The notes under the pieces are model-generated. The model was not told the DNA's origin and ran no database searches. It worked only from the letters and a program-made list of their open reading frames with translations. From Escherichia coli (lineage in GTDB: Bacteria > Pseudomonadota > Gammaproteobacteria > Enterobacterales > Enterobacteriaceae), in assembly GCF_003334785.1 (NCBI RefSeq), contig NZ_QOWV01000002.1: DNA of 64,000 bases; one strand, written 5' to 3'. Shown one piece after another: positions 2,327-46,661 of this stretch. How positions within the stretch are numbered: the stretch's first letter is position 1; each line of letters begins with the position of its first letter. The position numbers and the translations under genes are program-made.

Positions 2327-3784
2327 ATGACAATAACTCCACAAAACCTGATCGCACTGCTACCGTTGCTGATCGTCGGCTTGACGGTGGTGGTTGTGAT
2401 GCTCTCCATTGCGTGGCGACGCAATCATTTCCTCAACGCTACGCTCTCGGTTATTGGGCTTAACGCGGCGCTGGTTTCGCTCTGGTTTGTTGGCCAGGCG
2501 GGCGCTATGGACGTTACGCCGCTGATGCGCGTTGATGGTTTCGCCATGCTTTACACCGGGCTGGTATTGTTGGCGAGCCTCGCCACCTGTACTTTCGCCT
2601 ACCCGTGGCTTGAAGGCTATAACGACAACAAGGATGAGTTCTACCTGTTGGTGTTAATTGCCGCGCTGGGCGGGATCCTGCTGGCGAATGCCAACCATCT
2701 GGCGTCTCTGTTCCTCGGTATCGAACTGATCTCTTTGCCGCTGTTTGGCCTGGTCGGTTACGCTTTCCGCCAGAAACGTTCACTGGAAGCCAGTATCAAA
2801 TACACCATCCTTTCTGCCGCAGCGTCTTCTTTCCTGCTGTTTGGTATGGCGCTGGTGTATGCGCAGTCTGGCGACCTGTCGTTTGTCGCGTTGGGTAAAA
2901 ACCTTGGCGACGGTATGCTCAACGAGCCGCTGTTGCTGGCAGGTTTCGGCCTGATGATTGTTGGCCTCGGCTTCAAACTCTCTCTGGTGCCGTTCCACCT
3001 GTGGACGCCAGACGTATACCAGGGCGCGCCTGCGCCGGTTTCCACTTTCCTGGCGACGGCGAGCAAAATCGCTATCTTCGGTGTGGTGATGCGTCTGTTC
3101 CTCTACGCACCGGTGGGTGACAGCGAAGCGATTCGCGTGGTGCTGGCGATTATCGCCTTTGCCTCCATCATCTTCGGTAACCTGATGGCGCTGAGCCAGA
3201 CCAATATCAAACGTCTGCTCGGTTACTCATCTATCTCTCACCTCGGCTATCTGCTGGTAGCGCTGATTGCGCTGCAAACCGGCGAGATGTCGATGGAAGC
3301 GGTAGGGGTTTACCTGGCCGGTTATCTGTTCAGCAGCCTCGGCGCGTTCGGCGTGGTCAGCCTGATGTCCAGCCCGTATCGTGGCCCGGATGCTGATTCC
3401 CTGTTCTCTTACCGCGGTCTGTTCTGGCATCGTCCGATCCTCGCGGCAGTGATGACGGTGATGATGCTGTCTCTGGCCGGTATCCCGATGACGCTGGGCT
3501 TTATCGGTAAGTTCTACGTGCTGGCGGTCGGTGTCCAGGCACACTTGTGGTGGCTGGTGGGTGCCGTGGTTGTCGGTTCGGCAATCGGCCTCTACTACTA
3601 CCTGCGCGTGGCGGTGAGCCTGTATCTTCACGCCCCGGAACAACCGGGTCGCGATGCACCATCAAACTGGCAGTACAGCGCGGGCGGTATCGTTGTGCTG
3701 ATCTCTGCACTGTTGGTACTGGTGCTGGGTGTATGGCCACAACCGCTGATTAGCATTGTGCGTTTGGCAATGCCGCTGATGTAA
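2327..3784 (+). CDS. nuoN: NADH-quinone oxidoreductase subunit N
   Basis: 485-aa membrane ORF starting 7 nt after nuoM stop; last gene of nuo operon. Confidence 0.95.
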
Positions 3785-31391: not shown

Positions 31392-31610
31392 TTCCGCCAC
31401 TCTGTGCCGGTTTACTGCACCGGCACATTCCCCCTCCGGCAAAATTTGTCCAACCTGTTGTACTCAATAAGAAAAAATCCGTGCGCTGATTCACAAATTT
31501 GTGCGTAATTTCTCCAGTCTGCTGGACGAGGAGCGGGATTTGATGCGCTTCACAATTTTACTCCCCCTGAGCAACGAGACTGATTCCAGTATCTAAGACT
31601 GGAGTCCAGT

Positions 31611-32393
31611 ATGTTGGAATCAAGCAAAGTTCCCGCCCTGACACGGGCTATTGATATTCTCAATTTGATTGCCCGCATTGGCCCCTGTAGTGCTGCGACG
31701 ATCATTGACACATTGGGAATCCCTAAAAGCACGGCCTATTTGCTGCTTAATGAACTCAGGCGTCAGCGTTTTCTTAGCCTTGATCACCAGGAAAATTTTT
31801 GTTTGTGGACCAGGCTGGTGGAGCTTTCCGGTCATGCGTTAAGCAAGATGGATCTCCGGGAACTGGCTCGACCGCGTTTGACGCAACTGATGGATACCAC
31901 CGGGCTGTTATGTCACCTGGGGATTATTGATAACGGCAGCGCTTATTACATTTTGAAAGTGGAGTCATCAGCCACTATCAGCGTGCGTTCCCATGAAGGA
32001 AAAAGCCTTTCGCTTTATCGCTCCGGAATAGGTAAATGCCTGCTTGCCTGGCAACCTGCAGCGGTACAGCAAAGTATTATCGAAGGGCTGGTCTGGGAGC
32101 AGGCGACACCCACAACGATTACTCATCCACAGCAACTTCACGAAGAACTGGCGCGTATTCGCCGTCAGGGCTGGAGCTATGACAACGGCGAAGATTACGC
32201 CGATGTCCGTTGTGTCGCTGCGCCGGTGTTTAACGCCAATAACGAGCTTACCGCTGCGATCTCGGTGGTCGGTACCCGCTTACAAATCAATGAAGAATAC
32301 CGTGATTATCTGGCGGGCAAGGCCATTGCCTGCGCCAGGGATATTTCACGTCTGTTGGGATGGAAAAGTCCCTTTGACTTACAAGCCTCATAA
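31611..32393 (+). CDS. rhmR: IclR-family transcriptional regulator RhmR
   Basis: 260-aa ORF with N-terminal HTH and IclR effector domain; precedes rhmD-rhmT-rhmA. Confidence 0.9.
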
Positions 32394-37109: not shown

Positions 37110-41174
<4,065 letters not shown>

Positions 41175-41446
41175 TGTTATCCCTCTGAAGTTCGTTTTTT
41201 ACCATTTAGCCATAGTAAAAACATGAATTGTTTGATTTCGCGCATATTCGCTCATAATTCGAAAGTGAAACGTGATTTCATGCGTCATTTTGAACATTTT
41301 GTAAATCTTATTTAATAATGTGTGCGGCAATTCACATTTAATTTATGAATGTTTTCTTAACATCGCGGCAACTCAAGAAACGGCAGGTTCTCTCACTGAA
41401 TCAGGCTGTTAATCATAAATAAGACCACGGGCCACGGAGGCTATCA
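41175..41446. promoter_or_regulatory. Divergent glpACB / glpTQ control region with candidate GlpR operator repeats and CRP-like palindrome
   Basis: Repeated TTCG-centred motifs (tttgatttcgcgcat, tattcgctcat, aattcgaaag) around 41230..41265 and tgaaacgtgatttca palindrome near 41266..41280. Confidence 0.45.
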
Positions 41447-42805
41447 ATGTTGAGTATTTTTAAACCAGCGCCACACAAAGCGCGCTTACCTGCCGCGGAG
41501 ATCGATCCGACTTATCGTCGATTGCGCTGGCAAATTTTCCTGGGGATATTCTTTGGCTATGCGGCTTACTATTTGGTTCGTAAGAACTTTGCGCTTGCTA
41601 TGCCTTATCTGGTTGAGCAGGGATTCTCACGCGGTGATTTAGGTTTTGCCCTTTCGGGGATCTCGATTGCTTATGGATTTTCGAAATTCATCATGGGTTC
41701 GGTATCGGATCGCTCGAATCCGCGCGTTTTCCTGCCCGCAGGTTTGATTCTGGCGGCGGCAGTGATGTTGTTTATGGGCTTTGTGCCATGGGCGACGTCG
41801 AGCATTGCGGTGATGTTTGTACTGTTGTTCCTCTGCGGTTGGTTCCAGGGGATGGGGTGGCCGCCGTGTGGTCGTACTATGGTGCACTGGTGGTCGCAGA
41901 AAGAACGTGGCGGCATTGTGTCAGTGTGGAACTGTGCGCACAACGTCGGTGGTGGTATTCCGCCGCTGCTGTTCCTGCTGGGGATGGCCTGGTTCAATGA
42001 CTGGCATGCGGCGCTCTATATGCCTGCTTTCTGCGCCATTCTGGTGGCATTATTCGCCTTTGCGATGATGCGCGATACCCCGCAATCCTGTGGCTTGCCG
42101 CCGATCGAAGAGTACAAAAATGATTATCCGGACGACTATAACGAAAAAGCGGAACAGGAGCTGACGGCGAAGCAAATCTTCATGCAGTACGTACTGCCGA
42201 ACAAACTGCTGTGGTATATCGCCATCGCCAACGTGTTCGTTTATCTGCTGCGTTACGGCATCCTCGACTGGTCACCGACTTATCTGAAAGAGGTTAAGCA
42301 TTTCGCGCTAGATAAATCCTCCTGGGCCTACTTCCTTTATGAATATGCAGGTATTCCGGGCACTCTGCTGTGCGGCTGGATGTCGGATAAAGTCTTCCGT
42401 GGCAACCGTGGGGCAACCGGCGTTTTCTTTATGACACTGGTGACCATCGCGACTATCGTTTACTGGATGAACCCGGCAGGTAACCCAACCGTCGATATGA
42501 TTTGTATGATTGTTATCGGCTTCCTGATCTACGGTCCTGTGATGCTGATCGGTCTGCATGCGCTGGAACTGGCACCGAAAAAAGCGGCAGGTACGGCAGC
42601 GGGCTTTACCGGGCTGTTTGGTTACCTGGGCGGTTCGGTGGCGGCGAGCGCGATTGTTGGCTACACCGTGGACTTCTTCGGCTGGGATGGCGGCTTTATG
42701 GTAATGATTGGCGGCAGCATTCTGGCGGTTATCTTGTTGATTGTTGTGATGATTGGCGAAAAACGTCGCCATGAACAATTACTGCAAGAACGCAACGGAG
42801 GCTAA
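41447..42805 (+). CDS. glpT: Glycerol-3-phosphate:phosphate antiporter GlpT (MFS)
   Basis: 452-aa MFS ORF. Confidence 0.95.
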
Positions 42806-43927: not shown

Positions 43928-44179
43928 TCAAATTTTTCCAATCGCCACTAATTGTTCCATGCACATTTGTAGTAAAAACAGTGGACTGCCTTCTACCGGC
44001 TTTTCTTTAGCCAGCAACGAAATCTGTCGATAGAAAGTTGGTTCGAGAGGAACGGAACACAATTCACCTGCAATGCTTTTCAGCGTTAACTCTGGTTGTA
44101 AGGCGATGCCTAATCCCTGTCGAATAAAATTTATCGCTGTATCCGCCTGATTAAATTCACATTTTATCTGCTGGGCGCA
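43928..44179 (-). pseudogene. yfaH: LysR-family regulator C-terminal fragment (yfaH-like), no start codon
   Basis: Minus-strand open frame translating to ...IKCEFNQADTAINFIRQGLGIALQPELTLKSIAGELCSVPLEPTFYRQISLLAKEKPVEGSPLFLLQMC..., typical of a LysR effector-domain C-terminus; no HTH part or in-frame ATG. Confidence 0.5.
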
Positions 44180-44348
44180 CTATTAGTGGTAGTGGCTGGT
44201 GGAATCTATGCGCTGCAAATGAAGGGTAAAAGCGGTGTCAAGCTAGTAGTGGCAAAAGAAATTCATTAATACGACACGTTTCATTAAGATTTTCCTCAGG
44301 TAACCACCTATAGTCATTGTCGTTAATAAAAATGACAGGCGATAGGGT

Positions 44349-45307: not shown

Positions 45308-46437
45308 CAGAGCTGGAAGTTACTCAAATCGTCGGTGTCCACTTCCGAGTCAATCTGCCCGACCAGATAAGAACTGACTTCCACTTCCTGCGGAGCAACC
45401 TGCACGTTATCAGACACCAGCCAAGTGTTGATCCACGGGATCGGGTTGGAGCGCGTCTGGAACGGCAGATCCAAACCGACTGCCTGCATACGGATATTGG
45501 TGATGTATTCAACGTACTGGCAGAGAATGTCTTTATTCAGACCAATCATCGAACCGTCGCGGAACAGATAATCCGCCCAGTCTTTCTCCTGTTGAGCTGC
45601 CTGAACAAACAGGTCATAGCACTCCTGCTTACACTCTTCGGCAATTTCCGCCATCTCAGGATCGTCCGCGCCGCTGCGCAGCAGATTCAGCATATGCTGG
45701 GTGCCGGTCAGGTGCAGGGCTTCGTCGCGGGCAATCAGGCGAATAATTTTGGCGTTGCCTTCCATCAATTCGCGTTCTGCAAATGCGAAGGAACAAGCAA
45801 AGCTGACGTAGAAACGAATCGCTTCCAGCGCGTTAACGCTCATCAGGCAGAGATACAGTTTTTTCTTCAGCTCGCGCAGGCTAACGGTCACAGTTTTACC
45901 GTTAACGGTGTGGGTACCTTCGCCCAGCAGATGCCAGTAGCTGGTCATTTCGATCAGCTCATCGTAATAGCTGGAGATCCCTTCCGCACGTTTCTGGATC
46001 TGCTCGTTGGTGACGATATCGTCAAACACAACAGACGGATCGTTAACGATATTACGAATGATATGAGTATAGGAACGGGAATGAATCGTTTCTGAGAACG
46101 CCCAGGTTTCGACCCAGGTTTCCAGTTCCGGAATAGAAATAAGCGGCAATAGCGCCACGTTCGGGCTACGACCCTGAATGGAATCCAGCAGCGTCTGATA
46201 TTTCAGGTTGCTGATAAAGATGTGTTTTTCGTGCTCCGGCAGCGCCTGGTAATCTATACGGTCGCGGGAGACGTCAACTTCTTCCGGACGCCAGAAGAAA
46301 GAGAGCTGCTTTTCGATCAGCTTTTCGAAGATGTCATATTTTTGCTGATCGTAGCGAGCCACGTTGACCGGCTGACCAAAGAACATCGGTTCTTTGAGCT
46401 GATCATTTTTCGTCTGTGAAAAGGTGGTATATGCCAT
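45307..46437 (-). CDS. nrdB: Class Ia ribonucleotide reductase beta subunit NrdB
   Basis: Track ORF extends upstream through REP sequence; start [22 protein letters not shown] at 46437 gives 376 aa. Confidence 0.95.

Positions 46438-46461: not shown

Positions 46462-46661
<200 letters not shown>

Follow-up and report, generated by a model that had tools for sequence, protein, structure and literature searches.

The window, a stretch of 64,000 nucleotides of Escherichia coli DNA, contains a spacer of 272 bp (41175–41446; 36% G+C) between the divergent genes glpA and glpT (Table 1). NCBIfam equivalogs identify the minus-strand products as GlpA, GlpB and GlpC and the plus-strand products as GlpT and GlpQ, with the cut-offs exceeded several-fold, and the RefSeq annotation of identical DNA gives the same glp gene identities. 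The glpACB genes encode the anaerobic glycerol-3-phosphate dehydrogenase, and glpTQ encode the glycerol-3-phosphate transporter and a glycerophosphodiester phosphodiesterase. Positions 41102–41522 match E. coli K-12 MG1655 exactly, with 100% identity across the spacer; a K-12 coordinate is obtained as 2393821 minus the window position, the window running antiparallel to the K-12 numbering. A query of 651 bp (41000–41650) was found in 5,420 of 5,426 complete E. coli genomes, at 95–100% identity and on the chromosome in every case. The first-pass annotation of this DNA had placed a divergent glpACB/glpTQ spacer here, an assignment that NCBIfam, RefSeq and the identity with K-12 all confirm.

The spacer is the long-studied and well-characterized control region between the back-to-back glpACB and glpTQ promoters, a real and functional feature that is already known from the literature. 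The K-12 glpTQ–glpACB control region was reportedly the subject of work by Larson, Cantwell and van Loo-Bhattacharya in 1992 (said to be in J Biol Chem 267:6114) and by Yang, Gerhardt and Larson in 1997 (likewise, Mol Microbiol 24:511). It is among the most heavily annotated promoters of E. coli, and little new biology is added here. RegulonDB holds 21 sites for five factors at glpTQ, and Fis, CpxR, TorR and IHF are further reported inputs to the spacer. Consensus scans of the spacer for IHF, ArcA, CpxR and TorR gave only matches with one or two mismatches, and an Rfam search of it gave no RNA family. The region is also of practical interest, as GlpT is a route of fosfomycin entry and changes in the spacer alter susceptibility (PMC5352689).

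For comparison across species, a scan of reference genomes for GlpT yielded 80 Enterobacterales loci, about 50 of them with glpA divergently upstream. The spacers of 15 Enterobacteriaceae were aligned, and a separate set of 47 spacers was anchored on the motif TTGAT. In the 15-spacer alignment, column identity is 73–93% in most 10-bp bins of 41195–41338 (63% in 41215–41224), and the glpT leader (41375–41424) is poorly conserved, at 41–51%.

Table 1 Features of the glpA–glpT spacer and its borders, in window coordinates
Feature	Position	Strand	Sequence	Remarks
glpA start codon	41172–41174	−	ATG	ORF of 542 aa, 39546–41174; NCBIfam GlpA NF008313, 1107 bits
GlpR-operator-like site	41187–41206		GAAGTTCGTTTTTTACCATT	14/20 to consensus; 5.4 bits; mean 7.7 bits in 15 species
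Putative glpA extended −10	41204–41212	−	TGG-CTAAAT	GGCTAAATG invariant in 15 Enterobacteriaceae
Best GlpR-operator-like site, on FNR box	41227–41246		ATTGTTTGATTTCGCGCATA	15/20; 12.6 bits, rank 3 of 64 kb; mean 12.1 in 15 species
FNR site	41232–41245		TTGAT-TTCG-CGCAT, TTGATTTCGCGCAT	Centre 41238.5; at putative −41.5 of glpA
10-bp tandem TTCG repeat, read as GlpR half-sites	41237–41261		TTCGCGCATA / TTCGCTCATA / ATTCG	
Palindrome, candidate PlaR (YiaJ)/KdgR IclR-family box	41266–41280		TGAAAC-GTG-ATTTCA, TGAAACGTGATTTCA	1 mismatch to PlaR/KdgR box
Degenerate CRP-like site	41271–41286		CGTGA-TTTCAT-GCGTC, CGTGATTTCATGCGTC	Centre 41278.5; overlaps palindrome; 5 mismatches, 3.0 bits
GlpR-operator-like site	41279–41298		CATGCGTCATTTTGAACATT	13/20; 6.6 bits; at least 4 bits in 67% of 15 species
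Principal CRP site	41321–41336		TGTGC-GGCAAT-TCACA, TGTGCGGCAATTCACA	Centre 41328.5; class II, about −41.5 to −39.5 of glpT
glpT −10 hexamer	41358–41363	+	TAACAT	Aligned TAnnAT (TAACAT, TACTAT, TACCAT) conserved in Enterobacteriaceae
glpT ribosome-binding site and start codon	41436–41449	+	GGAGG (41436–41440), ATG (41447–41449)	GGCCACGGAGGCT nearly invariant in 15 species
glpT ORF	41447–42805	+		NCBIfam GlpT NF008433, 977 bits

CRP and FNR sites at the two promoters

The principal CRP site is the sole match within one mismatch of TGTGA-N6-TCACA in the spacer, and 0.75% of spacer shuffles give an equally good match. Over all 64 kb, one-mismatch matches to this core are not rare (three, against 1.9 expected), so that the position and conservation of the site matter. 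It ranks first of the 64 kb with a CRP position weight matrix (PWM), at 18.2 bits (the training sites being, as we take them, those of the Stormo–Hartzell set), and is found at one mismatch in 12 of the 15 Enterobacteriaceae. A DNase I footprint of CRP-cAMP lies on AATGTGTGCGGCAATTCACATT, and glpT requires crp and cyaA (Kurabayashi et al. 2017, PMC5352689). On the 300-bp probe used in that study the sole CRP footprint reported corresponds to 41317–41338. A literature search with strings of the spacer sequence found this footprint paper alone; several CRP sites are reported in the glpTQ–glpABC spacer. The presence of a CRP site in the spacer, as proposed at first pass, is therefore borne out by the footprinted site, which lies 50 bp from the palindrome that had been taken for it.

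The centre of the principal CRP site and the first base of the glpT −10 hexamer are 29.5 bp apart, as at class II promoters. Back-calculation from the site positions in PMC5352689 puts the glpT +1 at 41368, and canonical spacing puts it at 41370. A scan with the sigma-70 consensus recovered neither of the two activator-dependent promoters, and its single hit (TTGAAC/AATAAT, 41290–41319) is no better than chance.

On the glpA side, a 70-bp DNase I footprint of FNR-D154A contains TTGAT-TTCG-CGCAT (PMC5352689). Taken alone, the E. coli FNR box is not above chance, with three mismatches to TTGAT-N4-ATCAA (P = 0.55 in shuffles); the orthologous box has one mismatch in 22 of the 47 Enterobacterales. 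The same site is the second-best CRP-like site of the spacer by the CRP PWM (7.0 bits), which fits the reports of several CRP sites in the spacer. The distance from the centre of the FNR box to a TGn-nnnAAT element on the glpA strand is 29.5 bp in 47 of 47 spacers, an arrangement for which the anchor-plus-geometry filter itself selected; the E. coli element is TGGCTAAAT, read from 41212 to 41204. These features suggest that glpA has an extended −10 promoter with a +1 near 41197 and FNR at −41.5. Searches of the literature, including searches with the predicted K-12 coordinates, found no published glpA start, and neither glpA nor glpT is named in the main text of the FNR ChIP-seq paper.

Clustered GlpR-operator-like sites

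The motif TTCG occurs at 41191, 41237, 41247 and 41258, and CGAA at 41260. Their joint count is not enriched (5 observed, with 3.25 expected from dinucleotide shuffles; P = 0.21), and it is their phasing that stands out: three TTCG motifs at 10–11 bp spacing are unique in the 64 kb and arise in 0.05% of dinucleotide shuffles. Tandem Repeats Finder assigns to 41237–41261 a period of 10, 2.4 copies, 86% matches and a score of 36. A general repeat search with default-like thresholds missed both the 10-bp repeats and the palindrome, because their arms and seeds are too short. The closely spaced TTCG-centred repeats described at first pass are thus present, in the form of this 10-bp tandem.

The consensus of the GlpR operator was taken to be WATGTTCGWTAWCGAACATW, presumably that of Zhao et al. 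1994, and is confirmed from sequence by a perfect operator palindrome, TATGTTCGATAACGAACATT, upstream of glpD. In K-12 this palindrome is followed by the degenerate TATGAGCTTTAACGAAAGTG, and four adjacent degenerate units lie upstream of glpF. A plain count of 20-mers matching the consensus discriminates poorly (96 matches of at least 13/20 in the 64 kb) and was replaced by a PWM and a tandem-array score. The PWM was symmetrized and derived from six operators of glpD and glpFK, with no training site from the tested spacer. With it, the spacer has five matches of 5 bits or more, where 0.6 would be expected from its length, and two of 8 bits or more, where 0.14 would be; over thresholds of 5–8 bits the enrichment is 8- to 14-fold. 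Matches above background were thus obtained with the PWMs of both GlpR and CRP. Single GlpR matches of 5–8 bits are common in random sequence, and the 64 kb holds 151 matches of at least 5 bits. When adjacent operators at 20–21 bp spacing are scored as arrays of three or four, the top-scoring arrays of the whole 64 kb are those of this spacer.

Besides the sites in Table 1, the 20-mer 41319–41338, which lies on the principal CRP site, is GlpR-like (8.3 bits). The site at 41187–41206 overlaps the putative +1 and −10 of glpA, and its left half reads (T)ATGTTCGTT in Enterobacter and others. Averaged over the 15 Enterobacteriaceae, the GlpR PWM peaks at 41187, 41227, 41237, 41247, 41269, 41279 and 41319. 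Of the 47 Enterobacterales, 43 retain the CG dinucleotide at +17 from TTGAT and 46 the one at +28, with flanks that vary: the TTCG of E. coli is replaced by AACGAA in Yersinia and others. GlpR half-site cores would be expected to behave in this way. At the 41227 site TTTGAT is invariant and never TTCGAT; FNR, more than GlpR, may be behind the conservation of that site.

GlpR operators control glpTQ and glpACB (PMC4790336, PMC7567609), and the literature gives 4–8 GlpR sites per glp operon. Passages of the same two papers that cite Larson 1987 and 1992 describe GlpR binding and its release by glycerol 3-phosphate. It has also been pointed out that, for half of the GlpR sites in RegulonDB, at least 9 of 22 positions do not follow the consensus. 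Single matches being weak, it is clustering, phasing and conservation that carry the case for GlpR. Alternatively, both the TTCG repeats and the palindrome could be by-products of an AT-rich spacer full of CRP and FNR half-sites, with GlpR acting mainly elsewhere, for example at remote sites. Such a reading would account for the unenriched TTCG count, for the weakness of single PWM matches, for the position of the top match on the FNR box and for the lack in E. coli of the strong operator that other genera have on the glpT +1. It is nevertheless very unlikely, as it does not explain a phased TTCG triple that is unique in the 64 kb, a tandem-array score that is highest in the spacer, CG cores that persist in 43 to 46 of 47 species despite the change of flanks, or the published number of sites per operon. 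Candidates for remote GlpR operators inside glpA are weak and isolated. The proposal made at first pass, that the repeats are tandem GlpR operators, agrees with the excess of PWM matches, the third-ranked site, the top-scoring arrays and the conservation.

The palindrome at the centre of the spacer

Apart from the palindrome TGAAA-CGTGA-TTTCA, which the first-pass annotation had noted, the 64 kb contains no TGAAA-N5-TTTCA; the pattern arises in 0.45% of spacer shuffles, a figure to be read as post hoc. Among the 15 aligned species, the arms of the palindrome are not co-conserved: they are complementary at all five positions (5/5) in E. coli and two Enterobacter alone, and the majority base at 41280 is G. 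TGAAAC is kept in the closest genera only. The central GTGA (41272–41275) is retained in 14 of the 15 species.

The first-pass annotation had taken the palindrome for a CRP site, and this assignment did not hold: the best register has mismatches at 5 of 10 core positions and ranks 274th. The palindrome might still be one of the several CRP sites published for the spacer. The sequence between its arms, CGTGA, includes the widely kept GTGA; the homologous 16-mer is a CRP core with two mismatches in Raoultella, K. michiganensis and Entomohabitans; and the centre of the CRP-like register would be at −91.5 from a glpT start at 41370. We consider this unlikely. No register comes within three core mismatches, and 275 PWM matches in the 64 kb are equal or better. 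The arms TGAAA and TTTCA differ from the half-sites TGTGA and TCACA, and are separated by N5 rather than N6. The sole CRP footprint on the 300-bp probe lies on the principal site, and the site at 41238.5 is a better candidate for a second CRP site. What does appear to underlie the centre of the palindrome is a decayed CRP half-site (CGTGA), as judged from the CRP cores or boxes that relatives have at the homologous position.

The IclR-family repressor PlaR (YiaJ) provides a better match. In genomic SELEX, PlaR bound the spacer of glpT and glpA (Shimada et al. 2019, PMC6958661), and the gel-shift primer table of that paper includes a glpT/glpA probe, the primers of which map to about 41140–41462, with one extra base in the reverse primer relative to the window. 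The PlaR box ATnTGAAACnnnGTT(T)CAnTT is described in ten high-affinity targets and resembles the KdgR box (PMC6958661); the consensus as printed there has 20 letters, though called 21 bp. We infer that glpT/glpA is among these ten targets, since the only low-affinity probes named are mltB-srlA and frlA. In strains with deletions of plaR and of kdgR, the mRNAs of glpA and glpT are both increased (PMC6958661). When the 64 kb was searched for the pattern TGAAACNNNGTTTCA with up to two mismatches, the palindrome was the only match, with one mismatch; the chance rate at one mismatch or fewer is 0.16 per 64 kb. As positive controls, the pattern recovered TGAAATCAAGTTTCG in the plaR–yiaK spacer, TGGAACACTGTTTTA in the pdeH–kdgK spacer and two boxes with one mismatch upstream of kduI (TGAAACACTGTTTCG and TAAAACAATGTTTCA). 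The binding described in PMC6958661 is to the spacer, and its placement on the palindrome is a prediction from the motif. Taken together, the motif match and the published binding and expression data indicate that the palindrome is probably a PlaR/KdgR box.

The left arm also resembles an operator of Cra (FruR) or of another LacI-family protein, through the half-site GTGAAACG. The sequence AGTGAAACGTGATT (41264–41277) has one mismatch to the asymmetric Cra consensus, which we take to be RSTGAAWCSNTHHW, and 0.09 such matches are expected per 272 bp. That the palindrome is such an operator is extremely improbable. At the palindrome, nothing within two mismatches fits the symmetric core TGAAWCGWTTCA, since the right arm is shifted by 3 bp; a literature search found no link of Cra to glpA or glpT; the conservation of TGAAAC is confined to the closest genera; and the direct binding and expression data favour PlaR/KdgR. 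Abutting LacI-family half-sites, TGAAWC and GWTTCA around a central CG, were likewise unmatched within two mismatches at the palindrome.

Probable control of the divergent promoters and comparison with known systems

The region is very probably explained best by shared control of the divergent glp promoters by GlpR, CRP, FNR and PlaR/KdgR. Two activator-dependent promoters would face apart, with starts about 173–175 bp from each other (41197 and 41370). GlpR, a DeoR-family protein, would bind degenerate 20-bp operators made of 10-bp half-sites at about 41187–41298 and possibly at 41319–41338, and its oligomers would cover the −10/+1 region and the activator site of glpA together with the upstream part of the glpT promoter and so block both RNA polymerase and the activators; glycerol 3-phosphate would lift the block by removing the repressor. 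At glpT, CRP-cAMP overlaps the −35 region and is, on published footprint and genetics, the class II activator that this gene requires. At glpA, which would depend on an FNR/CRP-type site at its −41.5, FNR would be the class II activator under anaerobic conditions, given the predicted geometry of that promoter; FNR also enhances glpT anaerobically from about −130. PlaR, and probably KdgR, would add repression from the centre of the spacer by contacting the palindrome. The useful gain from the present analysis is that the palindrome is refiled as a probable PlaR/KdgR-type box instead of a CRP site, and that the CRP and FNR sites receive exact coordinates.

The arrangement differs among genera. 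Three elements stand at homologous positions in Yersinia, Serratia, Pectobacterium, Dickeya and relatives: an FNR box close to consensus (TTGATAAGGAACAA); a CRP box that fits the consensus and lies exactly 60 bp away from the FNR box (such as TGTGATCAAAGTCACA); and, on the glpT +1, a strong operator for GlpR (such as GGTGTTCGTTATAGAACATA). Escherichia, Citrobacter and Klebsiella have a degenerate FNR box, a middle CRP box that is decayed and displaced by 20 bp, and no operator on the +1. One tentative reading, which we hold to be possible rather than probable, is that the E. coli spacer is a decayed and rewired derivative of an older Enterobacterales layout, in which case the PlaR/KdgR box may occupy the decayed CRP site. 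If so, this history could be the reason that glpT of E. coli has to be repressed from a distance.

Both predicted promoter geometries resemble those of known class II promoters. As at class II CRP promoters, the CRP core overlaps the −35 region and is centred at −41.5 if A41370 is the +1; with the +1 at 41368 (PMC5352689), it would be at −39.5. The FNR box would have the spacing of class II FNR promoters, with 29.5 bp between its centre and the first base of the conserved extended −10, but differs from them in its degeneracy in E. coli (three mismatches), and the glpA start used for this comparison is a predicted one.

The palindrome fits the PlaR/KdgR core TGAAAC-N3-GTTTCA as well as the kduI boxes do, and better than the box of the plaR–yiaK spacer. 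It differs from known PlaR/KdgR boxes in lying between two promoters, at about −76 of glpA and −97 of glpT, where it overlaps no −10 or −35 element, and the flanking AT...TT of the 21-bp PlaR consensus is poorly matched.

The GlpR-operator-like sites share with the glpD and glpFK arrays the tandem 20–21 bp operators and the TTCG/CGAA-centred half-sites, and the scores of those arrays (8.5–23.9 bits) bracket that of the spacer. In contrast to the perfect palindrome of glpD, the best spacer site reaches only 12.6 bits, the half-sites are direct TTCG repeats at 10-bp spacing rather than clean inverted pairs, and FNR, CRP and putative PlaR boxes lie among the sites. The operator boundaries given here are computational, from a PWM of six sites, and may differ from the published K-12 footprints. 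The DNA itself is that of the K-12 glpTQ–glpACB control region, with no sequence difference and with the same divergent promoters, multiple GlpR operators and control by CRP and FNR.

GlpR- and CRP-like matches across the window

In Yersinia, Serratia, Pectobacterium and Brenneria, the predicted glpT +1 lies under a strong GlpR-like operator, one example being GGTGTTCGTTATAGAACATA at 13 bits. The equivalent E. coli segment, 41364-41383, contains no GlpR-PWM match of at least 5 bits. Isolated matches to the same PWM lie within the coding regions of glpA and glpT, the best of these being CAGGTTCGATAATGCGCGCT at +393 of glpA. The title of a 1992 paper by Larson reportedly implies remote GlpR operators; the intragenic matches are candidates for such operators, indistinguishable here from chance. 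Two of the five best GlpR-PWM matches in the window are located 210 bp apart in the interior of nrdB; TTAACG probably accounts for both as chance hits.

The CRP-PWM matches that rank second and third in the window, separated by 59 bp, are located in the spacer upstream of a 260-aa ORF (31611-32393), which we take to be, probably, the IclR-type regulator yfaX/rhmR. The single Rfam match in the whole window is naRNA4 (RF02564, 76 bits), a REP-type element located in the nrdA-nrdB interval. The glpQ-inaA interval carries two pseudogene fragments in the RefSeq annotation.

Positions of motif matches, repeats and insertions (window coordinates unless a comparison locus, L, is named)
Feature	Position	Details
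Conserved palindrome	41298-41317	homologous place in L007-L083
GlpR-like operator at glpT +1	~45 bp from the glpT-proximal CRP-like site, on its downstream side	L046, L056, L060, L043, L069 and others
Isolated GlpR-PWM matches within glpA	40781-40800, 40658-40677, 40445-40486	5-10 bits
Isolated GlpR-PWM matches within glpT	41676-41695, 41787-41806	5-10 bits
GlpR-PWM match in nrdB	46035-46054	ACGGATCGTTAACGATATTA, 14.8 bits
GlpR-PWM match in nrdB	45825-45844	CCAGCGCGTTAACGCTCATC, 12.2 bits
CRP-PWM pair	31477-31498 and 31536-31557	13.6 and 15.1 bits
naRNA4	46544-46614	
glpQ-inaA pseudogene fragments	~43928-44270 (L001 5929-6270)	LysR-family regulator remnant; hypothetical protein (RefSeq)
IS1A, strain 361	L085 650-1417	inserted at window-equivalent 41340-41348
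IS1, strain CNR20180903	L086 ~2906-3700	breakpoint near window-equivalent 41405
Inverted repeat	41196-41205 / 41212-41221	TTTTTACCAT / ATAGTAAAAA
Direct repeat	41324-41334 and 41365-41375	GCGGCAATTCA / GCGGCAACTCA
Overlapping IHF-like and ArcA-like matches in glpT leader	41399-41416	AATCAGGCTGTTA (IHF-like)

IS1 elements at glpT in other E. coli strains

In E. coli strain 361 (a blood isolate from Houston), the glpT promoter is interrupted by an IS1A element, which is flanked by a 9-bp target duplication (AATTTATGA) and lies between the glpT -10 on one side and the CRP site with the -35 on the other. The insertion is predicted to cripple CRP-dependent glpT expression, an effect that would plausibly open the way to fosfomycin tolerance. 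An IS1 element also adjoins the glpT leader in strain CNR20180903 (urine, Belgium), where nrdA comes next and occupies the place of glpT-glpQ-inaA-yfaE-nrdB. An IS1-associated deletion or rearrangement appears to have removed glpT.

Conserved palindrome and short repeats of the spacer

An imperfect palindrome, TGTCATAAA-NN-TGTAACA, is conserved in most Enterobacterales directly upstream of the glpT CRP site, and has diverged to TTTGTAAATCTTATTTAATAAT in E. coli and E. albertii. A match between the palindrome and a known factor was sought, and none was found; a consensus scan of the E. coli sequence places a CpxR-like GTAAATCTTATTTAA with two mismatches at this position. The same type of scan detects in the glpT leader an IHF-like match overlapped by an ArcA-like TGTTAATCAT, each with one mismatch, in a region that is poorly conserved.

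Two short repeats are also present in the spacer. The copies of the direct repeat, 41 bp apart, are located within the CRP site and at the glpT start, respectively, and may have arisen by chance. The inverted repeat, with 10-nt arms that are 90% complementary, flanks the putative glpA -10, and is similar to the TTTTTAT...ATAAAAA arrangement of Citrobacter.
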